This document shows positions 4,846 through 59,093 of a stretch of 64,000 nucleotides of DNA, in pieces (the first letter of the stretch is position 1; each line of letters begins with the position of its first letter). A program made the position numbers and the translations under genes. The stretch comes from an uncultured Candidatus Saccharibacteria bacterium (lineage in GTDB: Bacteria; Patescibacteriota; Minisyncoccia; Phycocordibacterales; UBA9973). The stretch is from contig CAYODR010000003.1 of the NCBI GenBank assembly GCA_964402895.1, positions 3,534 to 67,533 of the forward strand, in the 5' to 3' direction. Under the pieces are notes generated by a model, which had not been told where the DNA came from, did no database searches, and saw only the letters and a program-made list of their open reading frames with translations.

Positions 4846-6333
4846 ATGACTAACCAAGTCCTAAACATTTTAGTTTTACTCTTGGGTCTAATTATCGGAT
4901 ATGGAGTGCGTACACTATATTTTTATTTAAAGAAAAATTCTGTAGAAAAAAATATAGATAAAAAAATCGCCCAAGCAAGAAATAGAGCCATTGAGATAAT
5001 AGAGTCTGCTCAAACCAAAGCAGATAAAACAAATGATTTTATTAAAGAAAAGGAATTACACATCTTTAATAAAGAAAAAGAAATAGATATAAAAAATTCT
5101 AAACTTGAAAACCTGATTAAAGAAAAAGAGCTGATTGTCAAAAATATTTTTGAAAAAGAAAAAGAGATAAAAGAAATTCATAAACAAAAAATCTCTACTC
5201 TTGAATCAATATCCGGAATATCGCAAGAAGAAGCACTGGATTTACTTTTACAAAAAATAGAAAATGATAATCAAGAAAACTTTCTAAAAAGATTAAGCAA
5301 GCTAAATAAAATCTCAAGTGAAGAAATCGAAGATCGAGCAAGGAGCATTTTATCAACTGTTATTCAAAAAATATCTGTTGATGTGACAAATGACCTGACT
5401 ACTTCATATATCACAATAAATGATCCGGAAATAAAATCTAAGATTATTGGTAAAGAAGGTCGCAATATAAAATCATTTGAAAACTCATCTGGTGTAAATA
5501 TTTTAGTAGATGAATACCCTGATAAGATGGTTCTATCTTCTTTTGATAGTACTCGTAGAGCTATCGCCAAGATTGCACTTGAGAGACTGATAGAAGACGG
5601 TAGGATTAATCCAAGCAAGATAGAAGACGAACTGGAAAAAGCAAAAAAAGATATCCATGAAAAAATCCGCGAAGCTGGAGCATCAGCAATATCTGAGTGC
5701 AAAATTTACAACCTAGACCCGCACCTAGTAACACTTCTAGGTAAATTAAATTTCAGAAGTAGTTATGGACAAAATGTATTAGCACATTCTATAGAATGTG
5801 CTCACATTGCAAATTCACTTGCACTTGAATTGGGCGCAAACAATGAGGTTGCCAAAACCGCTGCCCTACTTCATGACATAGGTAAAGCCATTGACCAAGA
5901 AATAGAGGGCGGACATGTAGATTTGGGAATCAAATTACTCAGAAGATTTGGAGTAAATGAAGATATTGTAAATGCAATGAAAAGTCATCATGATGACTAT
6001 CCTCATGAATCAATAGAATCAGTAATAGTCCAAACTGCGGACATGATTTCTGCAAGTAGAAAAGGCGCACGAAATAATTCAAAAGAAAACCACATCCAAA
6101 GACTTGATGAGCTAGAAGATCTTGTACACAATTTTAACGGAGTACAAAATGTTTATGCCATAAATTCAGGTAGAGAGATTAGAGTTTTTGTACATCCAGA
6201 AATGATATCTGATCTAAAAGCACATGAATTAGCTAAAGAGATTGCGATATCAATAGAAGATGAACTTGCATATCCGGGACAAATTAAAATAACAATAATC
6301 CGAGAAACTCGTGTTATAAACTACGCTAGATAA
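4846..6333 (+). CDS. rny: ribonuclease Y
   Basis: N-terminal TM, K/E-rich coiled coil, KH domain (IGKEGRNIK), HD domain (LLHDIGKA ... HHDD); translationally coupled to clpP. Confidence 0.85.
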   Translation: MTNQVLNILVLLLGLIIGYGVRTLYFYLKKNSVEKNIDKKIAQARNRAIEIIESAQTKADKTNDFIKEKELHIFNKEKEIDIKNSKLENLIKEKELIVKNIFEKEKEIKEIHKQKISTLESISGISQEEALDLLLQKIENDNQENFLKRLSKLNKISSEEIEDRARSILSTVIQKISVDVTNDLTTSYITINDPEIKSKIIGKEGRNIKSFENSSGVNILVDEYPDKMVLSSFDSTRRAIAKIALERLIEDGRINPSKIEDELEKAKKDIHEKIREAGASAISECKIYNLDPHLVTLLGKLNFRSSYGQNVLAHSIECAHIANSLALELGANNEVAKTAALLHDIGKAIDQEIEGGHVDLGIKLLRRFGVNEDIVNAMKSHHDDYPHESIESVIVQTADMISASRKGARNNSKENHIQRLDELEDLVHNFNGVQNVYAINSGREIRVFVHPEMISDLKAHELAKEIAISIEDELAYPGQIKITIIRETRVINYAR

Positions 6334-6336
6334 AAA

Positions 6337-6367
6337 AGTGAAACATTAAAAGCTGTTTCACTTTTTT
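6337..6367 (+). terminator. rho-independent terminator after rny
   Basis: agtgaaaca/tgtttcact stem followed by a T6 run. Confidence 0.6.
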
Positions 6368-6466
6368 ATGTGGATACACCTGTGGAAACGATTTTATTTA
6401 AATTTTAACTTTCCTGAATAACATCAGTAGTTATAGTTACACGGTAAAATAAGGTATAATATTGTC

Positions 6467-9184
6467 ATGCAAAAAGAAAATTCCTTTGAATCAAAATTCA
6501 AAAACCCAAACGAAGAATTCTCTTATATCAGTGAGAGAGCTCAAAAAGAGTATATCCTACAAAACCCAAACAGTAAGACACTTGAAAGTGCTGCCTTAAA
6601 CACCCTTGAACAATATTCTCAAAAAAATACAAACGAAATAATCCATGAAACAAATATCATTTCTGAAAATGAAGTAGAAACCCTAGGATTAAAATTAAAA
6701 CCCGAAAACCATGATGATAAGATATCTGGGTTGTTGGGAATAGCGCTAGAAAAAGGAATTAAAAATGCATTTGAAGTATTAGATAAAATGCGTGACCCAC
6801 ACCTAAAAGATGACTTCCACAAATTTCTTGTACAGTATATGCAAACTACCGGGCTAATCCCCGGGATTAAAGAAGGCACCCCGCTGCATAAAGAACTAGA
6901 ACACTCATTATTTGCAGTTATGCTCCCAGCCAATACTGACAACCAAGATTTCAAAAATTTCATTCAAGCTATGAAGCAGTTCTATACTGGAATGATATCT
7001 GTATGTGAAAATTCAAAAGACCACTATACTATCGAGCTATCAGTACGAGGTGAATCTAAAGACATCGGTATCTATGTATCTGTACCAAGATTTTATGAAT
7101 CAACATTTGAAAAAATGGTCACAGCTTATTATCCATCTGCATCCATTGAATCTGTACCCGATGATTATAATATTTTCAGTGATACACCATCTGTAGTATC
7201 TGGATCAATAGCTACTCTTGCTGAACCAGAAATCTTCCCATTAAATACAGACGAAAACTTTTCTCATGATCCCCTAAGTGCTATCATCAACTCTCTTTCT
7301 AAATTTGAAATGAGCGGTGAAGGAGCAAGTATCCAAATCATAATTACAAATGACGGACAAAATACTAATAAAATATTTTCTGATGTTATTTCTAGTGCCG
7401 AAAAAAATAGAACAAAAATAAAAGATGAATACAAAGAAGCCGGTAGAAGTATCATCTCTGGTTTTGGCAAAGATTTTATCTCAATGTTTTCACCTAAAGA
7501 TACGAAAGATGATGAGCAAAAAGAAAAATTTTTAGATGTCTCAAATATAGAGCTTGTAAAAAAGAAAAATGGAAATCACATCATAAAATCCGGAATCCGC
7601 ATCATTGCTTCCGCCCCATCTATATCAAGAGCAAATGCAATGCTTACGACTATCAAAACTTCTTTCGGACAATTTGCACTTGTTGGTTCAAATAATATTT
7701 CTTGGAGAGATGTCAGAACATCAGAAATAAATAATTTCATTCAAGATTTTATTTTCCGTTCTATTAGAGAGAAAGAGTTGATGAGACTTTCAATAGATGA
7801 ACTTGCTACAATCTTTCACTTCCCTGTGGGAATTTCATCTACTCCGGAGTTAAGTGAGTCTCAAGCTACTACTGCTCCTGCTCCTAGTGGTATCATCCCT
7901 GAAGGAGTATATCTTGGAGTAAACAACTATAGAGGTAGTCTTACTGATATTTATCTAAACAAAGAAGACCGCGTACGACATACTTATGTTATCGGTCAGA
8001 CAGGAACAGGTAAAACAACAATTCTAAAAAATATGATTATTCAAGATATTAAAAATGGTCATGGAGTATGTTTTATAGATCCTCACGGAAGTGACCTTGA
8101 AGATATTCTCGCCAACATTCCGAAAGAACGACTTGATGATGTCATATACTTTGACCCGGCGTATACAGAAAGACCAATGGGGCTCAACATGCTAGAGTAT
8201 GATGAAAAATATCCTGAACAAAAAATATTTGTTATCAATGAGCTTCTTAGTATTTTTAATAAACTCTTTGATATGAAAACAGCTGGAGGTCCAATGTTTG
8301 AACAATACTTTAGAAATTCTGCGGGACTTGTAATGGAAGATCCAGAATCTGGTTCAACTTTACTTGAAATCACTCGCGTACTATCTGATAAATCTTTTAG
8401 AGACTTAAAACTTTCAAAATGCAAAAATCCTATCATCAAGCAATTCTGGGAAAATGCCGAAAAGACAACCGGTGAAAGCGGTCTTCAAAACTTTATCCCC
8501 TACCTTACAAGTAAGTTTGATGTATTTATTTCAAATGACATCATGAGACCCGTCATTTCTCAACAAAATTCTGTTTTGAATTTCAGAGAGATCATGGATA
8601 AGAAAAAGATACTATTGGTAAATCTATCAAAAGGAAGACTCGGCGATATCAATTCTCATTTGATTGGACTTTTACTTGTAGGAAAAATCACAATGGCAGC
8701 CCTATCGCGTGTAGATATACTTGGTCGTGGAGAAGTAAATGATTTCTATTTATATATAGATGAATTCCAGAATGTGACCACGGACTCTATCACCACGATC
8801 CTTTCTGAAGCTCGTAAATATAGACTAGGACTTATCATGGCCCATCAATATATTGAGCAATTAGACAATTCTATTCGTGATGCAGTTTTCGGTAATGTGG
8901 GTAATATGATTATCTATCGTATCTCACCTGAGAATGCAAAAGTATTTGAACAACAATTAGCCCCCACTTTTACTCCGACCGATATCATCAAGCTAGAAAA
9001 CTTCAACGCTTATGCCAAAATCCTAGTTAAAGGAACACCTCAAAAACCATTTAACCTACAAATTCCTCCACCACCAAAAGGTAATATAGAAATCACAGAT
9101 AAAGTTAAACAATTGTCCTATCTAAAATACGGACGACCTCGAGAAGAAATAGAAGCCGAAATATTTTCAAGATATAAAGCTTAA
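6467..9184 (+). CDS. P-loop ATPase of the TraD/TraG/VirD4 (type IV coupling protein) superfamily, lacking TM segments and carrying a large novel N-terminal domain
   Basis: Walker A GQTGTGKTT, Walker B YIDEFQNV, then ARKYRLGLIMAHQYIEQL as in the T4CP C-terminal region; about 480 aa of unassigned N-terminal sequence with no hydrophobic anchor. Confidence 0.5.
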   Translation: MQKENSFESKFKNPNEEFSYISERAQKEYILQNPNSKTLESAALNTLEQYSQKNTNEIIHETNIISENEVETLGLKLKPENHDDKISGLLGIALEKGIKNAFEVLDKMRDPHLKDDFHKFLVQYMQTTGLIPGIKEGTPLHKELEHSLFAVMLPANTDNQDFKNFIQAMKQFYTGMISVCENSKDHYTIELSVRGESKDIGIYVSVPRFYESTFEKMVTAYYPSASIESVPDDYNIFSDTPSVVSGSIATLAEPEIFPLNTDENFSHDPLSAIINSLSKFEMSGEGASIQIIITNDGQNTNKIFSDVISSAEKNRTKIKDEYKEAGRSIISGFGKDFISMFSPKDTKDDEQKEKFLDVSNIELVKKKNGNHIIKSGIRIIASAPSISRANAMLTTIKTSFGQFALVGSNNISWRDVRTSEINNFIQDFIFRSIREKELMRLSIDELATIFHFPVGISSTPELSESQATTAPAPSGIIPEGVYLGVNNYRGSLTDIYLNKEDRVRHTYVIGQTGTGKTTILKNMIIQDIKNGHGVCFIDPHGSDLEDILANIPKERLDDVIYFDPAYTERPMGLNMLEYDEKYPEQKIFVINELLSIFNKLFDMKTAGGPMFEQYFRNSAGLVMEDPESGSTLLEITRVLSDKSFRDLKLSKCKNPIIKQFWENAEKTTGESGLQNFIPYLTSKFDVFISNDIMRPVISQQNSVLNFREIMDKKKILLVNLSKGRLGDINSHLIGLLLVGKITMAALSRVDILGRGEVNDFYLYIDEFQNVTTDSITTILSEARKYRLGLIMAHQYIEQLDNSIRDAVFGNVGNMIIYRISPENAKVFEQQLAPTFTPTDIIKLENFNAYAKILVKGTPQKPFNLQIPPPPKGNIEITDKVKQLSYLKYGRPREEIEAEIFSRYKA

Positions 9185-9185
9185 T

Positions 9186-9223
9186 AAAAAATGCCCAAGC
9201 TATAATGCTTGGGCATTTTTTTG
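9186..9223. terminator. bidirectional terminator
   Basis: atgcccaagc/gcttgggcat stem flanked by A-run and T-run. Confidence 0.65.
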
Positions 9224-9227
9224 ATTC

Positions 9228-9608
9228 TTAATCAAAGACCTTTCTAAAAAGAAAAACTCCCGGTATAAAGAATAATATCCACAACAACATCTTTACTTCA
9301 GAAAATTTTGGTATATTCAAAAAATCTGAATAATAAGACATCAAGCATATCGGTAGGATAAAAATTGCCGGCAATAAAAATATAAATAAAAATGCTTTTA
9401 TTAAATGCCTGATGTACAAAAGCTCGGCATTGTAAAACAAAATTAATTCTATCCTATTGACTCCTACCATAGATATTATCATTACAGTTAAACTATAAAG
9501 AATCAAAAATGATCTGGTACCACTTAAGCCATCTCCAATGATGGCAAATGCTGAAAATAGCAACACTATGACTAAGCATAGTTTTTGCAAATAATTTTTA
9601 CTTTTCAT
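9228..9608 (-). CDS. hypothetical polytopic membrane protein
   Basis: 126 aa with 3-4 hydrophobic helices; lies downstream of the pilin genes on the same strand. Confidence 0.4.
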   Translation of the reverse strand: MKSKNYLQKLCLVIVLLFSAFAIIGDGLSGTRSFLILYSLTVMIISMVGVNRIELILFYNAELLYIRHLIKAFLFIFLLPAIFILPICLMSYYSDFLNIPKFSEVKMLLWILFFIPGVFLFRKVFD

Positions 9609-9680
9609 CTCTTTATTTTTTTGGTTTAAACCAATTTTGTCATAAAAAAGTGTTTTTTAAAATATTGATTAAAAAATATT

Positions 9681-10345
9681 TTAATTCACTATTTTTATAT
9701 AGTTTCTGATTACCGAACAGCTACACCTACGATTATAAGACCCGCCGCTACTCTGAGTAGAACCATTACAACCTACATATGTATTTTTTCTATTAGAAGC
9801 AAGCTCCATTCCAGCAATAATAAAATAATATTGCCCATTTGCACATCCAGAATACGCAGATGCAGAATAGTAATAATACACTCCACCATCAGTATTGCTA
9901 CCACTATTCCATACAGATAAGGGTTCTGGAGTAGGATCAATAGGGTCTTGCGCTATATATGGAGCAAGAGCGCCACCAGAGATCCACCTGCCATTAGATA
10001 AACCCGTAACAGAATTACACCAGTTTATACTATTTACAATCGGACCACTTGGGGAGCAACTCGCAGATGATGGATACTGCCCATGATCCATATAGTACAT
10101 CTCAAGCGCTGTTTGAATATTTCTAATATCAGAAATTCTTTTAGCATCTCTTGCTTTACTTCTTGCACTATTTAAAGATGCGATAACTACGCCCGCAAGT
10201 ATTCCTATAATGGCGATGACTACTAAAAGCTCAATGAGGGTGAAAGCTTTATTTTTATTATTAAAATAATTTAGAGTGAAGGCGTAACTTTTAGTGGTAT
10301 ACCCCCCCCCCTAATATTCTTTAGTTGGGGTGATAAGATTTTCAT
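9681..10345 (-). pseudogene. type IV pilin-like gene interrupted by a frameshift at a G10 tract (phase-OFF or homopolymer error)
   Basis: ATG at 10345 encodes the leader MKILSPQLKNIRGGG. It then hits a stop because the G-run (plus-strand C10 at 10302-10311) puts it +1 out of frame with the downstream YTTKSYAFTLNYFNNKNKAFTLIELLVVIAIIGILAGVVIASLNSAR... prepilin helix. An 11-G tract would restore a full pilin collinear with the paralogs at 10424 and 58401. Confidence 0.55.
10302..10311. repeat. homopolymeric C10/G10 tract inside the pilin leader coding region
   Basis: counted directly; the paralogous genes have G6 at the same IGG-encoding position. Confidence 0.9.
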
Positions 10346-10390
10346 GAGAATATTATAACATAGTGTGTGTCCCAAACAATATATCTTGCT
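10346..10390 (-). promoter_or_regulatory. conserved pilin upstream block (TGTTTGGGAC ... TGTTATAAT -N6- ATG)
   Basis: the same architecture as upstream of the other two pilin genes; the extended -10 ends 6 nt before the ATG. Confidence 0.45.
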
Positions 10391-10423: not shown

Positions 10424-11194
10424 CTAAGATGCACAGCGAACAGGATAATTAGTAGTTAAAAACCCTGTGAGTACATAGCTATCATTAAAACCCTGCACAT
10501 AAGCAACATTGTTTGAACTGATAATAGCAATAGATGGAGTAGATGACCAATAATAATTATTATTAAAACCTACATTACCATTATAATCATATATAGATTT
10601 TAAAACCTCAACAGGTGGGAGTCTTTTGCCCGCTGTTGCGCAAATATTATTTGCACCAATCCAGCCCGATGTCCCACTGTTTGAAGAATCAAGCGTTATT
10701 ACACTCTGAGCATCTACTGCATAATGTCTTTCATTGAAATATACTGCTACACCAAAATTTTTAGTTTCTAAAGAATCTGCTGGGATAAAATTATTAACAG
10801 TATCTCTGGGCACATCACTTGTCCTGACTACACACCTAACCTTATCTGCTCCTGCAATACTTATAAGAGCATCTATCATAGGTTGTATTGAAGCATGAGC
10901 TGTGACGCCTGTTGGATTATATGTACAAAGACCTGCAAATGTACCATTGTCTAAATGATATAGTTGGGCTTGATTTTGAAGATTCTTTAGATTTGATTTA
11001 ATCGCTGCTACTCTGCCACTTGTTCTGGCTGAGTTTAAAGATGCGATGACGACTCCTGCTAGTATTCCAATAATTGCAATTACAACAAGAAGCTCTATTA
11101 AAGTAAAAGCTTTAGATTTTTTTAGAGCAAAGATGCTCTTTTTAGAATAGCACCCCCCTATTTGTCTTTTAGAGTTTATTGGTAAATTTTTCAT
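10424..11194 (-). CDS. type IV pilin-like protein (prepilin N-terminal motif)
   Basis: leader MKNLPINSKRQIGGCYSKK...KAFTLIELLVVIAIIGILAGVVIASLNSAR; Cys-containing C-terminal domain. Confidence 0.8.
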   Translation of the reverse strand: MKNLPINSKRQIGGCYSKKSIFALKKSKAFTLIELLVVIAIIGILAGVVIASLNSARTSGRVAAIKSNLKNLQNQAQLYHLDNGTFAGLCTYNPTGVTAHASIQPMIDALISIAGADKVRCVVRTSDVPRDTVNNFIPADSLETKNFGVAVYFNERHYAVDAQSVITLDSSNSGTSGWIGANNICATAGKRLPPVEVLKSIYDYNGNVGFNNNYYWSSTPSIAIISSNNVAYVQGFNDSYVLTGFLTTNYPVRCAS

Positions 11195-11240
11195 GGTTTT
11201 ATTATATCATAGCATTAGTCCCAAACACTACATCCTATTC
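11195..11240 (-). promoter_or_regulatory. conserved pilin upstream block with TGATATAAT -10 box 6 nt before the ATG
   Basis: reverse complement reads aggatgtagtgtttgggactaatgctatgatataataaaacc ATG, nearly identical to the block upstream of 58401. Confidence 0.45.
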
Positions 11241-11329
11241 AGAGACACGGATAAAAATCTGCTGATTTTTTCCTGTGCTCAGACCAGTCGTCTTCCGCAA
11301 GTCTCTTCATAGGATATATTGTTTGGGAC
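11219..11329. repeat. GC-rich palindromic element, copy A (21-bp terminal inverted repeats gtcccaaacaNtacatcctat)
   Basis: perfect TIR pair flanking a core containing ataaaaatctgctgatttttt; the core is the reverse complement of part of the copy at 58266-58377. Confidence 0.6.
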
Positions 11330-11346
11330 TTTTATATTCACTAACG

Positions 11347-11445
11347 CAAAACAAAGCCTTTTTGCCGTGTCTCGCAGGCTGACTGAGCCGAGAGTCAGGC
11401 AATTTTTCAGCAGAAAAATATGCCGACGGCAAAAAGGCTTTGTTT
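11347..11445. repeat. GC-rich palindromic element, copy B (20-bp perfect TIR caaacaaagcctttttgccg)
   Basis: the core shares cgcaggctgactgagccgag with the 58266 copy and has a central atttttcagcagaaaaat palindrome. Confidence 0.6.
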
Positions 11446-11551
11446 GAAGTGGTGAAGATTTAAAAATAAATAAAATAGTTTTAGAAATTTTTTAAATATT
11501 TTAAGAAATAATCTATAAAAATAACAAATTATATTTATATAAAGTCAATGG

Positions 11552-17031: not shown

Positions 17032-17856
17032 ATGAAACCTTTTAATCCAAGCTCTAAAGAGGACAATATTATCAATATGCTAGCGATAGAATCTCTTTCA
17101 GCAAAAGAAATACTAGAAAAACTAAATGATTTAGAAAAAATAACAAAGCAAGCTTTGTACAAAATCCTAAATCGTCTTATTTTTCAAGAGATATTGGTAA
17201 AACACAATCAAAAATACTCCCTTTCTCGTATTTGGATACAGTCTATGTCTGATTTTATCCTTAAAACAGAGAGTTTATACGGACTTAATTCAGAAAAAAT
17301 AGACTTTTTAAATATTAAAGAGGGGGATAAAATAGAATATTCTTTTAAAAATGCTGTAGATGCTGATAAATTCTGGGGGCATGCTTTTGACTTATTTACC
17401 GATACAATACCCAAAAACCAAGAAATCACAATATATAATCAACATCAATGGTTTTTAATTGTTAGAAAAGATGAAGAACTTATGCTTTTTGATAAAATCA
17501 AAAAACAAGAAAAATACCTTAAAAACTATGTTTCTGGCAAGAATTTTCTAGATGAGTATGTAAGGCAATACTTTGATCAAGAAAGGGTTAAGTATGAAAC
17601 ACTCTCAAACCCCCCCTTTGAAGCAAATAACTATTATGTAAATATTTTCGGAACAAAACTTATTGAAGTATATCTAGACGAAAAAACATCTGAAAAACTG
17701 ACATATCTATATCAAAATACGCATGAATTTAAAGATTCAATACCTGAAAAAATAAAAAAAATTGCAAGCGAAGGAAAAACAAGAATCATAATCTCAAATA
17801 GCCCTAAAAAAGCTAAATACATATTGAAAGAAATAGAAAACTCAAAAAACCTTTAA
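17032..17856 (+). CDS. putative winged-helix transcriptional regulator with C-terminal domain
   Basis: N-terminal wHTH-like LSAKEILEKLNDLEKITKQALYKILNRLIFQEIL; start chosen at MKPFNP. Confidence 0.4.
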   Translation: MKPFNPSSKEDNIINMLAIESLSAKEILEKLNDLEKITKQALYKILNRLIFQEILVKHNQKYSLSRIWIQSMSDFILKTESLYGLNSEKIDFLNIKEGDKIEYSFKNAVDADKFWGHAFDLFTDTIPKNQEITIYNQHQWFLIVRKDEELMLFDKIKKQEKYLKNYVSGKNFLDEYVRQYFDQERVKYETLSNPPFEANNYYVNIFGTKLIEVYLDEKTSEKLTYLYQNTHEFKDSIPEKIKKIASEGKTRIIISNSPKKAKYILKEIENSKNL

Positions 17857-25177: not shown

Positions 25178-26281
25178 ATGAATGATGATGAAAACAACAA
25201 CATCATAAACAAGGAAACAACTGATGCTTTTTCAGATTTTTCAAAGATTCAGGATGATTTTCTTAAAAAAACTCTAGAAAAAATAGACCCTGTAAACCCG
25301 CCACTGAAAAACCCTGTACCTACAAATATTCCTACTGAAAACATTATAGAAGATATAAGTGTGCCAACTCCAACTCCAACTCCAACTCCAACTCCAACTC
25401 CAACTCCAACTCCAACTCCAACTGAAGTATTGCCCGAACCAGAAGAAATTCAAGAACCAGAAAGGGTCGTACTAGCACGAACATACGAAGATGATCTGGC
25501 TGCTTCAATGACGGTTACAGATGCAAAAACTGTTCAAGAATTATTAAAAGATGCACGAGAAAGAGAATCTTTAGAAAATCAAATTTATAAAGAAAAGAAA
25601 AATAGAAAATGGTATGTCTTCGGATCAATTTTCTTGATGATTTTGGCAATAGGAGCCGCTGGGTACGGAGCTTATCATTATCTTAAACTTACAACCCCGA
25701 CAGTGGAAAAAGCAAAAATTGCAGTCTTCTTAAGTACTGATGATTTTTTTATCAATCAGGCAAATATAGAGAGTGTGATGAATGATCCTTCTCTGCAAGA
25801 AATACAAATATCAAAACCTTATCTCGTGCAACTCCTAACAGATGAGGTCTCTAGAATATTTCCAACCCCACTAAACTTTTTCCAATATATTGGAATAAAT
25901 CCACCAGAACCATTTACTACATCTATTTCTGAACTTAGACTGGGCGTTGTTAATGATGGTATGAAAAATAATTTTTTCATTTTGATCTCTGCTATTGATA
26001 CAAACAAAACATTGAGAGAAATGTCTTTTATTGAGAAAGATTTAATAAATTATTTTTATAAACCCCTAAATATAGAAATAGAAAATATTATTCCAGAAAG
26101 TATGACTAATTTTATCAGTGAGTATAAAGAAAATGTTCCTGTAAGAACTCTGTATACTACAAACACAGATGGCCTGCGGTATTTATCTCTAATATATGGT
26201 GATTTGGGGCAGGATACTATTGTCATAACTCAAAATCCTGATGTATTAAAAACTGTGTACGATACTATCCTTAAACAATAA
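25178..26281 (+). CDS. single-pass membrane protein with (TP)n linker; cytoplasmic N-terminus, extracytoplasmic C-domain
   Basis: PTPTPTPTPTPTPTPTPTPT repeat, then one TM helix YVFGSIFLMILAIGAAGYGAYHYL; start 5 nt after the NYN gene stop. Confidence 0.5.
   Translation: MNDDENNNIINKETTDAFSDFSKIQDDFLKKTLEKIDPVNPPLKNPVPTNIPTENIIEDISVPTPTPTPTPTPTPTPTPTPTEVLPEPEEIQEPERVVLARTYEDDLAASMTVTDAKTVQELLKDARERESLENQIYKEKKNRKWYVFGSIFLMILAIGAAGYGAYHYLKLTTPTVEKAKIAVFLSTDDFFINQANIESVMNDPSLQEIQISKPYLVQLLTDEVSRIFPTPLNFFQYIGINPPEPFTTSISELRLGVVNDGMKNNFFILISAIDTNKTLREMSFIEKDLINYFYKPLNIEIENIIPESMTNFISEYKENVPVRTLYTTNTDGLRYLSLIYGDLGQDTIVITQNPDVLKTVYDTILKQ
25366..25424 (+). repeat. coding tandem repeat (actcca)n encoding (TP)10
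   Basis: direct hexanucleotide repeat counted in the sequence. Confidence 0.8.
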
Positions 26282-33178: not shown

Positions 33179-35452
33179 ATGCTTAAAAATACTTTTATAA
33201 TTTTTATATCTATTTCACTTTTTTTTCCTAATATATCTTTAGCTCAGAATCGTATAAACCCCGATGATATGAATAAAATAATGCTTACCAATATATTGGC
33301 AGGCTCTGCTACCTGTTTAGTAAATGTGGGGGTAAATTACCTTACAAACTACATGTCTGATAAGGCACAAAAGGCAAGAGAAGAAGCAGAGGAAAGATTA
33401 AAAAAAGAAGCTGAAGATTTTGCGGCAAAAGCAGCTGTTAATGCTACGTCAGCCGCGGTAGGGCTTGGCTATGCATACGTAAATGTTACAAACACTAGAA
33501 CTGTAGAAAAAAGAGCTCAAGATGCTGTTAATAGCTTAATCTCAAAAGAGGCTTGCTGGGACGGCTTGGCTAGAGGTGTTGCTCAAAACCTCCTACAATC
33601 TTTTTCAAACAATATAATAAGTCTTGCAAACACTGGTTTTGATGGAAATCCTGTATACATTAGAAATATAGATGATTTTATGGATAGTGTCACCAAGCAA
33701 AAACTAAATCATTTAATGCCAGATATTCAGACTAAAAATCCTGTCTTTGGAAATGCTTTAAGATCTATATTAACAGATCAAATTAATCTAACATCTAATG
33801 ATCTAATTCTATCAGCCAATAATACTGAAGTCGGAAAACAATATAATGAATTTATTAATGATTTTACTCGTGGTGGTTGGGGGTCACTTTTAAATACTCA
33901 GAACAATCCACTTTCTGCAATGTTTGGTGCATCTAATGAAATATACACCAATATCATAAATGAAAAATTAAACCTTAGAGATGAATACTCTAGAGGAAAC
34001 GGTTTTTTAGATATAAAGCAGTGTATAGAATATGATAAAAATGATAAAGATCTTTGTATAAAATACGCAACTACTACACCTGGGAAGCTTATATCTGACC
34101 AGGTAAGTCTTGTAATAGGTTCACCTATTAGACAGCTTGAGACTGTAGATGAAATAGATGAAATAGTGCATGCTTTTTTTGCTAATCTTATAAATAAAAT
34201 ATTAGGAAAAGATGGAGGGCTTTTTAGTGCTGAAGTTCTTTCTGGAGATTTTGGAGGCACTAACTGGGGGTCCAATCTTACTTTCTCTGATGGTGTACCA
34301 ATAAGACCAACTATTAACATGGAAATGTCTACTGGTTTTAGCAATATAGACATACAAAGACCTCAACTTATCAGAGAAGCAATAATAGCACAAATAAATT
34401 TTAAAAACAGAGCTCAAGATCACATATATGCGAACTTTGAAGAACTATATGAACTAGGCAGACTTGACTACTGTATGCCTGGTCCCAACCCTAGGTGGGA
34501 TTCTAGTAGAAGTACACTAGCCCAAAATATAGAATTATTTTCAGAAAATTCTATAGATGGACTTGATACGGCTCTACTTAAAAAAACTAGTGACAAATTG
34601 ATAGGGAATAACTATAGTTATGTACTTAACAATTCTTATGAAAATTTTTTACAATACGCTAGTATGGATGGAGCAAATCGATCAGTTGGATTATTTAAGC
34701 CATTTAAAGCTATAGACAGTATTACAGGCAAAGAAAAAAGTATAACATTTGAAAAAGGAATTGCTGAACTGCCTGCACAAAAAAATATACAAGGTATTTA
34801 TACTGACATAGCAGACGTTCCGGGTAACCCTATGATAACATCCAGAGGTATGATGGCTTTTACAAGTATTTCTCCTATATATAATAAAAATGTAATTCGT
34901 TTTTTTATGGCGGATAAATTACTAGATAGATATGCCTTGGGGAATTTTATATATAGCAAAGTTCTAAAAAATTCTCTCAAAGAAGATTTTGAATCAAAAT
35001 ATAGTATAGATAAAATAATCACAATATTTAAAGAACATAATCCAAATGTAAGCATTACACAAAAAGCTCTATATGGAGGAATGACGACTCAGGCATATGA
35101 GCATACAGAAAGGCTGATACCAAGAGCGCAAGAGATATACCTTATACAAGAAAGCTTAAATGAAGAGATAAATGAAGAAAATGGTCGAACTACACAAAAT
35201 ATCGTACTTCTTAATCAGTTATACCAAGAGGTACAAGATATAGTAGAACCAGCAAAAGCCAGATATATAGCAGAGAGAGCAGCGGCAGGTGACCCAGTAG
35301 ATATGCAATGTATAGATGCTGCTTATGTAATAGACAGATCTCCAATCACTGTCCCACTAGACTCTGATGCTACTCCAAGAAATCTAAATCATCAAGGTTC
35401 AAAATACAATAAATTAAATCAAAATAGAATATATTTTGATAGTACACTATAA
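33179..35452 (+). CDS. large secreted hypothetical protein (757 aa)
   Basis: signal peptide MLKNTFIIFISISLFFPNISLAQN; no known domain recognised; -10 box 6 nt upstream of the ATG. Confidence 0.5.
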   Translation: MLKNTFIIFISISLFFPNISLAQNRINPDDMNKIMLTNILAGSATCLVNVGVNYLTNYMSDKAQKAREEAEERLKKEAEDFAAKAAVNATSAAVGLGYAYVNVTNTRTVEKRAQDAVNSLISKEACWDGLARGVAQNLLQSFSNNIISLANTGFDGNPVYIRNIDDFMDSVTKQKLNHLMPDIQTKNPVFGNALRSILTDQINLTSNDLILSANNTEVGKQYNEFINDFTRGGWGSLLNTQNNPLSAMFGASNEIYTNIINEKLNLRDEYSRGNGFLDIKQCIEYDKNDKDLCIKYATTTPGKLISDQVSLVIGSPIRQLETVDEIDEIVHAFFANLINKILGKDGGLFSAEVLSGDFGGTNWGSNLTFSDGVPIRPTINMEMSTGFSNIDIQRPQLIREAIIAQINFKNRAQDHIYANFEELYELGRLDYCMPGPNPRWDSSRSTLAQNIELFSENSIDGLDTALLKKTSDKLIGNNYSYVLNNSYENFLQYASMDGANRSVGLFKPFKAIDSITGKEKSITFEKGIAELPAQKNIQGIYTDIADVPGNPMITSRGMMAFTSISPIYNKNVIRFFMADKLLDRYALGNFIYSKVLKNSLKEDFESKYSIDKIITIFKEHNPNVSITQKALYGGMTTQAYEHTERLIPRAQEIYLIQESLNEEINEENGRTTQNIVLLNQLYQEVQDIVEPAKARYIAERAAAGDPVDMQCIDAAYVIDRSPITVPLDSDATPRNLNHQGSKYNKLNQNRIYFDSTL

Positions 35453-35468
35453 TGTATAAGACTGATAT

Positions 35469-36896
35469 ATGAAAAGAAAAAAGATAATCATAATAACCAT
35501 AATACTTCTACTGATAGCAGCCGCTCTCTATGGATTTAGCATTTTCAAGGCACGCCAAAATGCAGCTAGAGAAAATGGTCAAGTATATGGTTTTAGAGAA
35601 TTCCTTAACATAGGGTCATTAGATATTTTTAGTCCGGGAGGGGAAGATATAAATACAGACTTTGAGCCTCTCCCTAGTGACTCAACCCTTGACCCTCTAG
35701 AAGATAGAAATGGAAATGGTGTTCCTGATGGACTAGAGGACCAAAATGGCAATAGAATAATAGACCAATTTGAAAGACCTGATGGAAGTGGATATATATC
35801 AAGACCCTCAGGAATTCCAATTCTTTTACCACCCGGAATAAATCCAGACTATTTTAACCCGGACTATTCTAACCCTGACAATCAAGATATCTATACTTGC
35901 GGAATAACAAACTTTTCAGCAAACGGAACAATAAGTCTTATTTTAACAGACCCAGAGAATGTCACAATAAATTGGAGCACAGAAAACTGTGAATATGTAA
36001 CCATTAGCGGTATTGATGGAGAATTACCCGCCTCAGGGAATACCACTTTAAACATTTCTTCTTCCGAAGTACTCACACTTAATTCATATCCGAGTGGAGC
36101 AAGTGCGTATGTTTCTATTTTTTTAATAGAAGATTCTGGGCTAGAGGATCCTATCATTCCTTCTGATCAAACTCCGAGATGTATGATAAATAGTTTCACA
36201 ATAAATGGAGATACCGTCAGTACTAATATAGCCAAAGGTGGTAACGCAAATATTAGCTGGTCATCTACAAACTGTGAATATGTAACTATCAGCGGCTTTT
36301 CTGGCAGTCAAGATACGGGCGGAACCCTATCAAGAACAATAGAGACCAACACAACATTTACAATTACTGGTTATCCAAATGGACAAACACTCTCTGTAAA
36401 TGCATATATAGATACATTATGGTCGGGGGGGGAGGGCCCAGATTATGTATGGAGTGGAAATGAGATATTGAATGGTTGTCTAGCTAAGGATATTAATATA
36501 GAATTTACACAAGAAGAATTAGAAAAACTGGCAGACCTACAGAGAAGATATAATGTTATCGCTCAAACTCTTAAAAGTAATGAAGCTGTTAGTGAACAAT
36601 ATAAAAAATATCTAGATTCAGCACTTAGTACAGTAAATACAAAAGAATCTAGGGAATTCTGTGAACAAGCAAAAGGATCTATAGCAGATGTAAGTATGAA
36701 TAAAAGAATACCTACGCCTTTTTGGAACGCACAAGCTGAGCCATCACTTGGATACCCAGCAGATTCTAATACTTTTACAAATTTCCCAATATATACATCT
36801 GATTATGAAGGTAGAGAATCGCCCAGATCTGCTTATGAGACTCCGAGCTTATGGGCAACACTATTTGAAAGAATTTTCCGTATCAACATATGGTAA
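35469..36896 (+). CDS. membrane-anchored protein with NGNGVPD motif and two tandem ~90-aa repeats
   Basis: N-terminal TM; repeats share W(S)T(E)NCEYVTISG...TGYP. Confidence 0.5.
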   Translation: MKRKKIIIITIILLLIAAALYGFSIFKARQNAARENGQVYGFREFLNIGSLDIFSPGGEDINTDFEPLPSDSTLDPLEDRNGNGVPDGLEDQNGNRIIDQFERPDGSGYISRPSGIPILLPPGINPDYFNPDYSNPDNQDIYTCGITNFSANGTISLILTDPENVTINWSTENCEYVTISGIDGELPASGNTTLNISSSEVLTLNSYPSGASAYVSIFLIEDSGLEDPIIPSDQTPRCMINSFTINGDTVSTNIAKGGNANISWSSTNCEYVTISGFSGSQDTGGTLSRTIETNTTFTITGYPNGQTLSVNAYIDTLWSGGEGPDYVWSGNEILNGCLAKDINIEFTQEELEKLADLQRRYNVIAQTLKSNEAVSEQYKKYLDSALSTVNTKESREFCEQAKGSIADVSMNKRIPTPFWNAQAEPSLGYPADSNTFTNFPIYTSDYEGRESPRSAYETPSLWATLFERIFRINIW

Positions 36897-36926
36897 AAGT
36901 TATATATATCATGATACAATAGGTTA

Positions 36927-39900
36927 GTGAGTACGACTCTGTCTAAATTTATAAAAAACACAAAAAGTATTTTATCTATAATACTTTTTGTGTTTTTGTT
37001 TTTTGTTTTTAATGGAGACCATGCACAAGCCCAAACACCAGATGAAATAAACTCATTTGAAAACGCATATTTTAGGTATTTAAATCTTTTTACAAATGAT
37101 AGTGGTTTAACACATAAGTCTTTTGAAAAAAATACCGAAAATAATAAATTTAATGGTATTTTATTTGATATTCAAATAAATTTAAATACTGAAATAGATA
37201 CAGCAGAAAATTTATGGAAATATGTAGACGAAGATTATTCGGTTATAAATTCAAACTCTGGAGATGAAGTATTTGTAATTAGACTTTGTGATAATGAAAA
37301 TAAAAATAATTGCTGGATAAACACCGTTTTAAATCAACCCTTTGGCCCAGATCCAATAACTGGAACTAATTATACCCACAATCATGGTGTTATATATCGA
37401 AAAGCCTTATCTGGAGGTAATACTAATTTTTTTGAAAAACAAAAATTAATAAATTTACTTACTTTCAACACTGAAGAATCAAAAAAACCTGCAAGGGGTG
37501 ATTTGTTTACTTTTAAAAAGGGGAGTGGAAATAATGGTGAACTATCTTCTTTTAATGATATAGATTTTAAAAACTTAGACTCTGTAGAAGCGTCTCTATG
37601 GTATTGTGCAGAGAATTCTCTCGGGGTTGATTCTAAATCGATTTATTCTGGAACTTCCTTTAGTGATAGAATCGGGAAGTTTGATGACCTGTGTGATGGA
37701 TACACATTCTTTAAAATTGGTAATAGTATAAACATATCTATCCCAGATGAGGGTACATATACTCCTCCGGTCCTTGACGAAAGAACTCCTGGATCAGAAA
37801 GAGATATCCAAGAACCCTCAGAAAATAATTTACCAGTTTGCGATATATCTTTAGCTGGAAATTCAAAGGTTATAGGTTGTATTGCTCGTATTGTTTATTA
37901 TGGATTTTATATACCAACCTCATGGCTAGCGGGTCTTTTTGGTATGATCTTTGATTTCTTCATAGGATATTCTGTAGACGATGCATCATATCGATATGAT
38001 TTTGTGGTCAAGGGGTGGAGAATAGTGAGAGATATTTCAAATATTGCTTTTATCATCATTCTTTTATACACCGGAATAAAAGCGGTATTTAATACTGGTG
38101 GATCTGCCGGAAGTGATATGCGTAGAATAGTACCAAACCTTATTATCAATGCTTTAATAATCAACTTTAGTCTTTTTGCAACTCGTACAGTGATAGACGC
38201 ATCAAATATTGGTACTAGGGTCTTTTATAGTCGAATGATTGTGTGTGATGGAGAATGTATAAATACAGGTTCTGGTATCCCGGCTAATATAAAAAGGGGG
38301 TTGGGTGGTTATTGGCCTCTCTCAGAAAAAATAACCAGTACTTTTGATCCACAAAAACTATTTAGTCCTAGTATACTAAGCCCGGAAGGACAAAAAACAA
38401 ATACTTCTGAAGACTTATTTAGATCAACTGGTGGAGGAAGAACGATTAGAGATGGGGCCAACAATCCTGGTTTTAATAAAAATAGTGATGAATATGCAGG
38501 TTACTATACACTGGTCAGCTTGCTATCTGGCTTAATCATGCTTGCAATAGCCGTGATGTTTTTCAAAACAGCATTTCTCTTTGTGGGAAGAGTGGTTGGG
38601 CTATATGTACTTATGATATTCTCTCCAATAGCATTTCTTACTCGTAGTATGGGTAAGACATTTAATATAAAAAAGTTTAATTGGACAGAATGGCTTAAAG
38701 AGCTCACAAGCTATGCACTGCTTGCACCTATTTTTACATTTTTCCTATATATCATCTATTCATTCTTTGAATCAGGATTAGTAAAGCAAATGGGGCTTAA
38801 AGAGCAGGGTGAATCATTCTTTGAAATACTTATAAGTATTGTTTTGCCGATGCTTGTAATCTTCATGCTTATTAAATACGCTCAAAAAATAGCAGAAGAG
38901 CATTCAGGTGAAATTGGAAAAATGGTGCAAAGCTTTGCAGAAAAGACTATTGGTGGGGTTGGAGTGGTTGCAGGAGGAGCTGTAGGACTTGCTGCAGGAG
39001 GAGCGGCACTTCTAGGAACAAGGCTCGGATCTAGAGTAGTAGGAAGACTTGCAAATAAAGCGGGCCTGACAGATTGGGCAGCAGAAAATGCAAGTACAAA
39101 CAGATTCGCTAGAAGTTTAAACAGTGGTATTCGTAGTACTCAAACAGGTTCTTGGGATGTTCGAAATACTTGGCTTGGTAAAAATACAGGTGCCGGAATC
39201 AACAGTATGATAAATATGACTAATCGTGCCGGACTAACAAATATAGACAATATAAGAGACAATATTTCTGGCAGACTTGGTCTTGGTGCTAAAGATTTTG
39301 CGGGTGGAGCTATTGCTCTTCAAAAGAAGGCTGATGAAAGAAGAGAGAAAGCTCTAAATAAAAAATTTAACGACAATAGCTTCGCTCACTTAACTGATGA
39401 ACAAGCTAAAGAGGTTTGGGTAAAAATAAAAGAAGAAAAAACAAAAACTCAACTTTCTGGCACTGAAGAAAAATTAATAGATAAACATATTGATTCAACT
39501 CTTAAAACCAACAATACATACTATCAAAAAGCTATTGAAAATATAGAATTTCAAAAAGAACAAGCTAAAATACTAGAAAATGCTATAACAAAGTCTCTAG
39601 AACAGCTTAAAGATAATAATTTGGATATAAATACTAGAAAAACAATAGAAAATCAAATGTCTTTCAATGTAAATGAATTGCAAAAATCCAAAAATGAGCT
39701 TGAAAGACTAGAAAAAGTAAGAGGTAATATTTTTGATACTCGAAAAAATAATAGTACATATGTATCAGATATTAAAAACTCTAAAGAATTCAAAGATGAA
39801 TTTGAAAAAGAAAAGAAAAATATAGAAAAAGATATAGACAAGAAATATGGTGAAGTTAAAAAGACAAAGGATCTTGTAATGGCTGCGAAAATGGATTATA

Positions 39901-40550
39901 TGAACAACCAAAGAGAGAATTCAATGTGGATGAAAGACCAAAAACAAAGATTCCAAGTTGTAGGTGGTTCTACACCATATCTAGGAACATCTTCTGGAGT
40001 ATCAGCATTATCAGCAGCTCTAGCTGGAAGTACTGCTTTAGCTAGTATAGGAGGAGGACTTGCTGTTGGTGGTGTAATTACCAGCCTTATAAAAGAAAAG
40101 GTTCAAGCAACAGACAATGCTACCAAAAAAATAATAAAAGATTTAGAGAAACAAATAGCTAAAAAGGATAGCCTTCCAAAATCAGAAGCGGATTTGAAAA
40201 ATATCAATGAAAAAATTAAAAATCTTTTAGGTGAAGATATTGATTTAATGTCTGAAGAAACAATTCGTGAAAAAATGAAATTAATTACTGAAGACTTACA
40301 AGCAAATCTAGATATTGCGCAAATAAACTTTGAAAAAGCAAAGAAGGAATACATGTCTGGTAGTGGAAGAGTATCAAATGATGATATAAAAAACCTATCA
40401 AAAGACCAGCAAAGATCTAGAGATCAGGTAAACGAAAGTAGCGACCTCCTAAAGAGAAGAAAAACACTACAAGCTCAAATTGAAAAAGCTGAAGGTATAA
40501 AGAATACGGACTCTAAGCCAAAAGAAAATAGTGATGATAAATCAAAATAG
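36927..40550 (+). CDS. giant polytopic membrane protein, VirB6/TrbL-like channel candidate, with long K/E-rich coiled-coil tail
   Basis: GTG start; signal/TM at the N-terminus, at least 6 TM helices in the middle (GLFGMIFDFFIGY, IAFIIILLYTGIKAVF, LIINALIINFSLFA, YTLVSLLSGLIMLAIAVMFF, LYVLMIFSPIAFL, LLAPIFTFFLYIIYSFF), Gly-rich segment, about 500 aa coiled coil. Confidence 0.45.
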   Translation: MSTTLSKFIKNTKSILSIILFVFLFFVFNGDHAQAQTPDEINSFENAYFRYLNLFTNDSGLTHKSFEKNTENNKFNGILFDIQINLNTEIDTAENLWKYVDEDYSVINSNSGDEVFVIRLCDNENKNNCWINTVLNQPFGPDPITGTNYTHNHGVIYRKALSGGNTNFFEKQKLINLLTFNTEESKKPARGDLFTFKKGSGNNGELSSFNDIDFKNLDSVEASLWYCAENSLGVDSKSIYSGTSFSDRIGKFDDLCDGYTFFKIGNSINISIPDEGTYTPPVLDERTPGSERDIQEPSENNLPVCDISLAGNSKVIGCIARIVYYGFYIPTSWLAGLFGMIFDFFIGYSVDDASYRYDFVVKGWRIVRDISNIAFIIILLYTGIKAVFNTGGSAGSDMRRIVPNLIINALIINFSLFATRTVIDASNIGTRVFYSRMIVCDGECINTGSGIPANIKRGLGGYWPLSEKITSTFDPQKLFSPSILSPEGQKTNTSEDLFRSTGGGRTIRDGANNPGFNKNSDEYAGYYTLVSLLSGLIMLAIAVMFFKTAFLFVGRVVGLYVLMIFSPIAFLTRSMGKTFNIKKFNWTEWLKELTSYALLAPIFTFFLYIIYSFFESGLVKQMGLKEQGESFFEILISIVLPMLVIFMLIKYAQKIAEEHSGEIGKMVQSFAEKTIGGVGVVAGGAVGLAAGGAALLGTRLGSRVVGRLANKAGLTDWAAENASTNRFARSLNSGIRSTQTGSWDVRNTWLGKNTGAGINSMINMTNRAGLTNIDNIRDNISGRLGLGAKDFAGGAIALQKKADERREKALNKKFNDNSFAHLTDEQAKEVWVKIKEEKTKTQLSGTEEKLIDKHIDSTLKTNNTYYQKAIENIEFQKEQAKILENAITKSLEQLKDNNLDINTRKTIENQMSFNVNELQKSKNELERLEKVRGNIFDTRKNNSTYVSDIKNSKEFKDEFEKEKKNIEKDIDKKYGEVKKTKDLVMAAKMDYMNNQRENSMWMKDQKQRFQVVGGSTPYLGTSSGVSALSAALAGSTALASIGGGLAVGGVITSLIKEKVQATDNATKKIIKDLEKQIAKKDSLPKSEADLKNINEKIKNLLGEDIDLMSEETIREKMKLITEDLQANLDIAQINFEKAKKEYMSGSGRVSNDDIKNLSKDQQRSRDQVNESSDLLKRRKTLQAQIEKAEGIKNTDSKPKENSDDKSK

Positions 40551-41145
40551 TCAAATGAATCCAAATAATAAACAAGATAATATAGAGATATATGAACAAC
40601 TCATACAAGAGACTCCGATAGAGGTTAGGAATTTTCTTTGGAGTCCAGCTTATCAAGCTATTATAGATTCTATAAAAGAAGCATATAGACTAAGCGATGA
40701 ACAATCTAATGTAGTTAAAGATGCTATTTTTGAAATAGCTATAGGATACCTAGATGAAGCCGGTGCTAAAAATAAATTAAATGATGCAAAAATAGACCAA
40801 ACAACACAAAATAAAATATTCTTAGTGGCTTTTGAATATGTTATTAATCCTGCTATTCAAAAATCAGAGGAAATTATAGAAGAAATAAAAGAGTTCGGTA
40901 TATATGATGAAGAATTTTCAGAAAATGAAACTCCAGAAGAAAAAGTAGGGGATTCAGCTAATAAAGAATTAGATTCAGAACACAAAACATACAAAACAAA
41001 CGATGCGGTTCTAATGAACCTAAACAAAAAACTAAATCAATCAACATCAATAAACCCAGTAGAGAGGAATCATGGTGTTGAAAATATAAAATCTGATAAA
41101 AAAGAAGGTGGTTTTATAGATCCGTATAGAGAAATACCTAACTAG
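40531..41145 (+). CDS. hypothetical soluble acidic protein
   Basis: 204 aa ORF overlapping the upstream gene end; no domain recognised. Confidence 0.4.
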   Translation: MMINQNSQMNPNNKQDNIEIYEQLIQETPIEVRNFLWSPAYQAIIDSIKEAYRLSDEQSNVVKDAIFEIAIGYLDEAGAKNKLNDAKIDQTTQNKIFLVAFEYVINPAIQKSEEIIEEIKEFGIYDEEFSENETPEEKVGDSANKELDSEHKTYKTNDAVLMNLNKKLNQSTSINPVERNHGVENIKSDKKEGGFIDPYREIPN

Positions 41146-41183
41146 GATTACACTATTTATAAATTGCATAGTATAATAAAAGT

Positions 41184-41585: not shown

Positions 41586-41586
41586 C

Positions 41587-42213: not shown

Positions 42214-42256
42214 TAAATTATATTTATAAGAGAAATACTGCTATAATATACATACA

Positions 42257-44074: not shown

Positions 44075-44107
44075 TACTTTTTAGTATTTTACTGTTATAA
44101 TTCAAAT

Positions 44108-45049: not shown

Positions 45050-45090
45050 CCGCACTGTTTAAAAACCTTTTTTATTGATACAATAAAGCA

Positions 45091-46869: not shown

Positions 46870-46881
46870 TGTAATTATAAT

Positions 46882-58108: not shown

Positions 58109-58213
58109 AAACCAAATATGTCCTTCTGGGGGCACGCGTATTTTTCTGAGGAAAAATCGCTATGCTCGCGCCAGTCGCGCTGCGCAAGTCCCCCAGAAGG
58201 ACATATTTGGTTT
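58109..58213. repeat. GC-rich palindromic element, copy C (24-bp TIR aaaccaaatatgtccttctggggg)
   Basis: perfect TIRs; central tatttttctgaggaaaaat palindrome as in the other copies. Confidence 0.55.
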
Positions 58214-58265: not shown

Positions 58266-58377
58266 GTCCCAAACAATACATCCTATGAAGAGACTTGCGC
58301 AGGCTGACTGAGCCGAGCACAGGAAAAAATCAGCAGATTTTTATCCGTGTCTCTGAATAGGATGTACTGTTTGGGAC
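58266..58377. repeat. GC-rich palindromic element, copy D (same TIR family as 11219-11329, core inverted)
   Basis: TIR gtcccaaacaatacatcctat / ataggatgtactgtttgggac; the core is the reverse complement of the copy-A core. The right TIR doubles as the pilin upstream block. Confidence 0.6.
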
Positions 58378-58400: not shown

Positions 58401-59093
58401 ATGAAAAAAATACCAACAAACTCTAAAACACAAATAGGGGGGTATACACTAAAAAGTAAAGCCTTCACTCTGATTGAACTTCTTGTTGTAATTGCAATCA
58501 TCGGTATTCTTGCGGGAGTAGTAATAGCTAGCCTAAACAGCGCCAGAACCAAAGGTAGAGTAGCGGCGATTAAATCAAATTTAAAGAATCTTCAGACACA
58601 AGCGCTCGCATATCATGCAGAAAATGGAACTTTTCTAGGATTATGTAATGCTGATAATAGTGTTATCCATGCAAATATAAAACCTAATTTTGATGCACTT
58701 AAAAATATCGTTGGAGAAAATAATATTAAATGTTTTGTTAATACATCATTATTGCAATATTATACATTTGGTGTAAGTGTGTATTTTGAAGAAAATTATT
58801 ATAGCGTAGATCATTCTATGATTTTGGCATTAGATAATTATTCCAATGTAGCTACTTCAACTGGTTGGCAGAACTCAATGGATAGCTGTATTTCTCAGGG
58901 TAAATTTGTTGCCTCTATTATGATGTTGAAAACAGTATTTGATCTAGGTTTTAGTGTAAGTGCTTATCACTGGTCGTCTACGGAGTCTTTTAATGATAGC
59001 TCTATGGCTTATACTCAACATCCAACTAATGGTATTTCATATCAAAATGTTAAGACATCAGGTTTTAATAGATCTATTTGTGGTACTTTATAA
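58401..59093 (+). CDS. type IV pilin-like protein (prepilin N-terminal motif)
   Basis: leader MKKIPTNSKTQIGGYTLKSKAFTLIELLVVIAIIGILAGVVIASLNSARTKGRVAAIKSNLKNLQ; almost identical N-terminus to the 10424 paralog. Confidence 0.8.
   Translation: MKKIPTNSKTQIGGYTLKSKAFTLIELLVVIAIIGILAGVVIASLNSARTKGRVAAIKSNLKNLQTQALAYHAENGTFLGLCNADNSVIHANIKPNFDALKNIVGENNIKCFVNTSLLQYYTFGVSVYFEENYYSVDHSMILALDNYSNVATSTGWQNSMDSCISQGKFVASIMMLKTVFDLGFSVSAYHWSSTESFNDSSMAYTQHPTNGISYQNVKTSGFNRSICGTL

Follow-up and report, generated by a model that had tools for sequence, protein, structure and literature searches.

The pilin gene at positions 9681 to 10345 of the window (the whole 64-kb stretch of DNA analysed here) carries in its leader a run of ten G residues which places the start codon and the pilin body in different reading frames. 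This gene, in the following called pilin gene 2, is a candidate for slipped-strand phase variation of individual pilin paralogs, caught in its OFF state, and on balance we take switching of this kind to be probable. The geometry on which the original prediction of phase variation was built stands, and the tracts of related genes, in which expansion with loss of frame recurs, are better explained by a hypermutable, switch-like tract than by a single lesion or an assembly error.

The G tract and the product of pilin gene 2

The start codon of the gene was read directly as ATG at 10345-10343 on the minus strand, and the reading frames were translated by script. The tract starts 35 nt past the ATG and is uninterrupted. 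With ten Gs the product is MKILSPQLKNIRGGGIPLKVTPSL, ended by a TAA at 10273-10271, nine codons after RGGG, which is the point of truncation that had been predicted. The pilin body lies in the +1 frame: it starts with GGGYTTKSYAFTLNYFNNKNKAFTLIELLVVIAIIGILAG, is open from the tract to a TAA at 9683-9681 and encodes GGGYTTKSYAFTLNYFNNKNKAFTLIELLVVIAIIGILAGVVIASLNSAR followed by 160 more residues. In this frame a TAG is found directly 5' of the tract and the first ATG, GTG or TTG only at 10100, so that the body is without a start codon of its own, as had also been proposed. The features of the locus are the following.

10302..10311, minus strand: G10 homopolymer in the leader-coding region (C10 on the plus strand), candidate slipped-strand switch
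10271..10345, minus strand: truncated leader ORF at G10, 24 codons (MKILSPQLKNIRGGGIPLKVTPSL) and stop
9681..10301, minus strand: prepilin body in the +1 frame, 206 codons and stop, intact
10230..10247, minus strand: class III (prepilin) signal motif A-F-T-L-I-E from a motif search, predicted cut A34/F35, E5 in the mature protein

When tract lengths were simulated, G11 gave a product of 221 aa and G8 one of 220 aa; G9, G10, G12 and G13 all gave truncated products. The gene is in frame (ON) at G8, G11 or G14 and out of frame (OFF) at G10, and a change of one unit in silico, from G10 to G11, replaces a peptide of 24 aa by the intact 221-aa prepilin which had been expected from one added G. At this locus the gene prediction which NCBI provides for the source contig (103,758 bp) has a 139-aa ORF alone (9681-10100, P0001).

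The run of ten exceeds chance. In the window, whose base composition is 33% G+C, G/C runs of at least eight bases were observed at two loci (the tract of gene 2 and a G8 at 36425), against 0.24 +/- 0.55 in 100 dinucleotide-preserving shuffles of the 64-kb window, and besides the gene 2 tract no G/C run longer than eight is present in the 64 kb. Apart from this tract the only long G/C runs of the window are the G8, followed by AGGG (36425-36432, plus strand), which in an unannotated ORF of 475 aa in a T4SS-like cluster encodes VGGGGP (codon 319), and a C7 on the plus strand (17610-17616) in an unannotated ORF of 292 aa (codon 211). Both are in frame, and both could be further mutable sites. A perfect CCAACT hexanucleotide repeat of about ten copies (25364-25429, plus strand), in frame in the ORF 25178-26281, encodes a Pro-Thr repeat, the length of which could vary without change of frame.

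Judged by its domains and motifs, the reconstructed product of gene 2 is a genuine type IV prepilin. It matches PF07963 (N_methyl, 1.3e-9) and PF08334 (2e-4) in Pfam and TIGR02532 in NCBIfam (31.2 bits, cutoff 16.3), and solved pilins in the PDB (Geobacter, GspG, Neisseria PilE, PilA) align so that their first mature residue falls on F35 of the gene 2 product. Its closest relatives, at 55-69% identity, are from Patescibacteria and are annotated as prepilins. The class III signal was taken to be [G/A]-F-T-L-I-E, its Glu being residue 5 of the mature protein, and after it a hydrophobic helix of about 20 residues; in gene 2 the cleavage region KAFTLIELLVVIAIIGILAGVVIA has the motif, the Glu and the helix. 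Position -1 of the cleavage site is Ala throughout the family, against the canonical Gly. The leader of the G11 reconstruction has 34 aa, those of the paralogs have 20-28 aa, and neither gene 2 nor the paralogs have the short basic leader (about 5-10 aa) of type IVa pilins. Orthologs of gene 2 in other Patescibacteria do have short leaders, of 3-10 aa, e.g. MKKAFTLIELL or MKSISLKRGFTLIELL. Being a pilin subunit, the product of gene 2 is of the surface-structure kind that marks contingency loci.

The window is chromosomal, with dnaA/dnaN, clpP, rny, ruvB, hup, four tRNA genes, a PilB-type ATPase and a VirB4/VirD4-like set. The T2SSE/PilB ATPase is encoded at 61113-62825 (PF00437, 1e-111), and no prepilin peptidase was found among the about 30 window ORFs scanned. 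The pair of pilin genes is adjoined by a gene for a VirD4-like coupling ATPase (6467-9184; DUF87, TrwB and TraG-D_C domains), and a run of large unannotated ORFs with a VirB4/TraG-like ATPase (42257-44074) extends from 33179 to 48138. T4SS have been described for Patescibacteria, and the VirD4-like and VirB4/TraG-like regions of the window resemble them.

The long-leader pilin family and its tract lengths

Two further pilin genes of the window are intact long-leader prepilins.

10424..11194, minus strand: paralog 1 (gene 1), 256 aa, G6 at 11153-11158, TGATATAAT at 11201-11209
58401..59093, plus strand: paralog 3 (gene 3), 230 aa, G6 at 58437-58442, TGATATAAT at 58386-58394

The G6 reported earlier for both genes was found at these positions. 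Of the geometry described for all three genes one detail did not hold, a leader ending in IGG, since that of gene 2 ends in IRGG(G). GGG accounts for 13% of the Gly codons, yet the Gly-Gly pair of the leader is GGGGGG in all three window paralogs, and the synonymous sites of the adjacent conserved helix, unlike this pair, have diverged among them. A pair so constant would be compatible with a run maintained as such in the DNA or with a leader cassette that has been homogenised. Ahead of the true cleavage region, the leaders of gene 2 (10248-10301, minus strand) and of P0077 have a degenerate second copy of it (YAFTLNYFNNKNK-AFTLIELL), as has that of gene 1 (11111-11152, minus strand; SIFALKKSK-AFTLIELL).

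About 30 related pilins, retrieved with paralog 3 as query, share the leader MK-x8-(I/K/M)-G-G-Y-T-x-K-S-x-AFTLIELL, an architecture which is joined to several different body types. All of them come from NCBI MAG contigs (103,758, 106,003, 236,134, 40,869 and 56,090 bp) or from Logan assemblies, and the source contig (103,758 bp) carries at least five pilins with the long leader. In an exhaustive HMMER pass over 1.84 billion cluster representatives only about eight clusters matched across the leader, which indicates that the architecture belongs to a narrow clade. In species-representative genomes, a collection holding neither the source genome nor its relatives, a DNA signature of leader and pilin gave 92 matches; inspection of the 18 with G+C below 0.45 showed no family member among them. 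The pattern G5+TAYAC...GCNTTYACNYT gave 13 matches in the JGI metagenomes, all of them by chance, and a profile search with 14 leader sequences was swamped by short generic pilin fragments.

The comparison of tract lengths among relatives, which had been proposed as a check, was carried out on 14 related pilin 5' ends (the three window genes and 11 from four sequencing runs), with simulation of the frames.

Pure G6: window genes 1 and 3, L095 and L114; in frame in 4/4
Longer pure tract: window gene 2 (G10), L094 (G10 at 140-149, SRR23593165) and L110 (G8 at 184-191, SRR29243421); out of frame in 3/3
Interrupted tract (GGATGG, GGGAGGGGG, GGGTGG) or none: L111, L112, L113a and L096b; in frame
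Short interrupted tract GGGGAGG: L096a; out of frame, possibly a stable loss

The three long-tract alleles are three different paralogs from three samples. Each is one G away from ON, gene 2 yielding 221 aa at G11, L094 251 aa at G9 and L110 266 aa at G7, and their bodies are uninterrupted, with 206-260 open codons. This polymorphism of ON and OFF lengths at the homologous site is one between paralogs and related organisms. By its predicted frames, each organism is a mixture of ON and OFF pilin paralogs. To two of the OFF alleles gene callers had given spurious internal starts, a GTG (MIAIIGILA...) and a TTG. The NCBI calls P0140 and P0154, on related contigs, begin with MIAIIGILA like the truncated call of the OFF allele P0138 and, judged from the protein calls alone, are probably further OFF alleles.

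Putative promoters, probable leaderless starts and Y-shaped elements

The putative promoter of gene 2 is marked by one feature.

10352..10360, minus strand: extended -10 box TGTTATAAT, separated by exactly 6 nt from the ATG of gene 2; the predicted leaderless transcript would begin at the AUG or right beside it

A box TG(A/T)TATAAT ends exactly 6 nt before the ATG in all three window pilins, and the arrangement TGnTATAAT-N6-ATG is present in 12 of the 14 related 5' ends. It is from this conserved position that we infer the pilin promoters, which a generic sigma-70 (-35/-10) scan did not call because they have no -35 match. Many more window ORFs have near-consensus TATAAT boxes; a perfect TATAAT 5-8 nt before the start is found at 11 of 50 ORFs and an SD-like motif at 6 of 50. 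With SD motifs so rare and TATAAT at such a distance, the mRNAs of the window, including those of the pilins, are most likely leaderless and translated from a 5'-terminal AUG. Leaderless initiation would mean that the long leader is really translated and that an internal start cannot bypass the out-of-frame tract, so that OFF would be tight. Leaderless-type gene starts are seen across the window, e.g. at 6467, 22603, 33179, 44108, 48831 and 56759. A role of the G tract as Shine-Dalgarno site for a downstream start was rejected, as no ATG, GTG or TTG comes after it in frame (at the distance where a start would be expected the codon is CTA, ACT, TCT or ATA), and the idea of a captured ancestral Shine-Dalgarno is weak, as the genome hardly uses SD (the 6/50 above) and the short-leader pilin of a relative (L113b) is leaderless too.

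A Y-shaped (three-way junction) palindromic element of about 105-110 nt, with a long outer stem, two inner hairpins and the conserved loops CTGCTGA and CAGTC, is found upstream of paralogs 1 and 3 and in relatives.

11221..11329, plus strand: copy nearest paralog 1, antisense to the pilin gene, one arm overlapping the -35 region
11344..11450, minus strand: distal copy upstream of paralog 1
58109..58213, plus strand: distal copy upstream of paralog 3
58266..58374, minus strand: copy nearest paralog 3
Relatives: L095 442-547 (plus strand); L096 5171-5276 (minus strand); truncated copy at L094 1-30

A covariance model found six full copies in 97 kb (four in the window, L095 and L096b) and a seventh, truncated, at the start of L094. 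Each of the six full copies precedes a long-leader pilin promoter by at most about 200 nt; both orientations occur, and every element, read in its own direction, has a T-run after it. Folding compared to shuffles gave z = -8.3 and -9.4. In the model-fitted alignment 97.7% of the cells pair, against 40-52% in slid controls, compensatory changes are seen in 26 of the 37 pairs and only two cells are G-U; the outer stems vary between copies but stay paired. The near-absence of G-U suggests constraint on both DNA strands (hairpin/cruciform) as much as on RNA. The element has no match in Rfam. An integron attC was considered and rejected, as R''/R' (RYYYAAC/GTTRRRY) boxes are missing and the outer stems differ between copies; possible roles of the element are those of a small RNA, a terminator, or a site of recombination or mobility.

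The conserved ribosomal-protein cluster of relatives contains self-promoted pilin genes of the family.

L096, 1849-2478: pilin cassette before rplC
L096, from about 5437 to the contig end: pilin cassette after rplB
L111, 2069-2839: pilin cassette between rplE and rpsN

Pilin genes in such a position suggest that the promoter-leader-pilin cassettes are mobile or spread by duplication.

Switching, rival explanations and known systems

Gene 2 belongs to a dispersed, self-promoted family of prepilin genes of the type IV class, in a bacterium of the Patescibacteria (CPR). In the mechanism proposed here, each of these genes would be transcribed from its TGnTATAAT promoter as a leaderless mRNA whose 5'-terminal AUG opens an unusually long leader peptide (20-34 aa), with G-rich codons for Gly-Gly at about nucleotide 35 of the message. 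The run of gene 2 would have expanded to ten, and slipped-strand mispairing during replication would add or remove a G. At G11 (or G8) the leader would be joined to the pilin body and the subunit made; at G10 translation would end at 24 codons and, without a Shine-Dalgarno internal start, no pilin would result. The assembled consensus would represent the OFF state, one step from ON, and paralogs differing in their state would give each cell lineage a variable set of pilus subunits.

Contrary to switching, none of the long tracts recovered as DNA is in frame (0/3), which is also the outcome expected of a mutational hotspot making pseudogenes. Gene 2 might instead be such a fixed or decaying pseudogene, a redundant paralog lost at its G tract without functional switching. 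We consider this unlikely, since all three long-tract OFF alleles have intact bodies exactly one step from ON, and since in a sequence of about 67% A+T the out-of-frame reading meets a stop within 17-24 codons, whereas the body frame is open for at least 206. What speaks for a pseudogene is the high redundancy of the family (at least five long-leader pilins on the source contig, about 30 across related contigs), the allele L096a, which with its short interrupted GGGGAGG looks like a stable loss, and the absence of an ON allele of gene 2 (G11 or G8) from about 15 billion public proteins, the organism being found in one sample only. A run of G10, on the other hand, cannot be mutationally stable, so some reversion would be expected whatever the selection.

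An error of sequencing or assembly in the homopolymer, the true tract being G11 (or G8) and the gene intact, was the alternative named originally; it has been weakened and is now very unlikely. Several sequencing platforms make errors in long G runs, but the same window has 16 A/T runs of 8-9 bases inside intact ORFs, several of them conserved housekeeping genes and among them those for UvrD, KsgA, PBP, aaRS and PilB, as well as a G8 in an intact ORF, and a general homopolymer error is for this reason unlikely. The only other public assembly of the locus, the Illumina-based Logan contig L001 (SRR16797981_52400), is 100% identical to window 6228-10269 over 4,042 bp; it supports the flanking 4 kb and, ending 32 nt before the tract, does not cover the tract length itself. 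At the same leader position two other paralogs, from independent short-read k-mer assemblies of other samples, have an out-of-frame G10 and G8, which makes an artefact specific to the source MAG unlikely. The break of L001 was also considered as a sign of length heterogeneity and set aside, as it lies 32 nt short of the tract and not at it, a repeat shared with P0077 being an equally good cause. Several more Logan contigs of the family (e.g. L094) break off within the leader region or the Y-shaped element, which indicates that these regions fragment short-read assemblies.

Recoding at the RNA level on a fixed G10, by RNA polymerase slippage or by tRNA-Gly ribosomal slippage on GGG, would provide a constant in-frame fraction and low-level pilin. 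The RNA:DNA hybrid is about 9 bp, and a run of 10 identical bases, being longer, offers the condition for transcriptional realignment; two unrelated paralogs, moreover, have exactly G10. Recoding is nevertheless highly improbable, as the OFF alleles need shifts (gene 2 +1, L094 -1, L110 -1) that cannot be reconciled with one programmed direction, inspection by eye showed neither a conserved stimulatory structure nor a slippery context other than the run, documented bacterial transcriptional slippage is mostly on A/T runs, and most family members are in frame at G6. The family lacks the conserved out-of-frame architecture and the fixed direction of shift of a programmed frameshift. With known slippage or recoding genes (IS elements, Thermus dnaX, endosymbiont poly-A rescue) gene 2 shares a run of at least nine identical bases at the frame junction; those have A/T runs and a conserved out-of-frame architecture, whereas the pilin family is mostly in frame and its OFF copies need opposite shifts.

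Slipped-strand phase variation of the pilin genes would have several counterparts in other bacteria. In a passage of PMC5953494 which cites Jonsson 1991, Neisseria pilC is described as phase-variable through a genic G(9-20) tract within the reading frame, and the cut-off given there for calling a phase-variable poly-G in Neisseria is G >=9. The G10 of gene 2 exceeds this cut-off and has the length (about 8-9 or more) and the position near the 5' end of the ORF of a mutable homopolymer. In this comparison pilC is the closest analogue of the gene 2 locus. The pilC tract is located in the signal-peptide-coding region. As in pilC1/pilC2 of Neisseria gonorrhoeae/meningitidis, a poly-G early in the coding sequence of a gene for type IV pili would toggle the frame by a change of one G, and G10 is in the typical range. 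Unlike pilC, gene 2 encodes the pilin subunit itself and not a PilC/PilY1 tip protein, and its tract, a candidate switch, lies in a class III prepilin leader, on a putatively leaderless mRNA of Patescibacteria, in a window of 33% G+C.

Campylobacter jejuni, Helicobacter pylori and Haemophilus have poly-G/C contingency loci with phase variation by simple sequence repeats. The pilin family is similar in that several surface-structure genes have tracts, with mixed ON and OFF states, in an A+T-rich genome from which long G runs are otherwise absent; it differs in having one tract of at least nine Gs in 64 kb and in having its tracts in one paralogous leader cassette, not in unrelated genes. In Bordetella pertussis the promoter poly-C tracts of fim2/fim3 act on promoter spacing and by this on transcription. 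There too a homopolymer controls individual fimbrial subunit paralogs, whereas the tract of gene 2 is inside the ORF and would act on the frame of translation. In the length of the leader (about 20-34 residues before cleavage) and the hydrophobic alpha1-N helix the family resembles type IVb pilins of the TcpA, BfpA class; unlike these it has F at the mature N-terminus (type IVa-like FTLIE), Ala and not Gly at -1, and orthologs of the body with short leaders. In the paper library searched, full texts gave no report of simple-sequence phase variation in Patescibacteria, nor one tied to Patescibacteria or Saccharibacteria pilins. The slipped-strand mechanism itself is classical.

A practical consequence regards annotation, where caution is needed as gene callers turn OFF alleles into 5'-truncated "proteins" (the 139-aa ORF; the MIAIIGILA starts). 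On a wider scale, we put forward tentatively, as a speculative possibility, a narrow lineage of Patescibacteria with genome-wide pilus variation, in which dispersed cassettes (Y-shaped element, TGnTATAAT, poly-G leader and variable body) would have their subunits chosen by slippage, and the Y-shaped element would be a new recombination or mobility site or a small RNA spreading or regulating the cassettes. The cultivated Patescibacteria are all episymbionts, and type IV pili of Saccharibacteria contribute to host binding (PMC11623550). If the tracts switch, they would allow a cheap stochastic change of pilus composition without regulators. Such variation of subunits may matter for attachment to the host cell or for escape from recognition by phage or host, and perhaps would affect host range or phage susceptibility.
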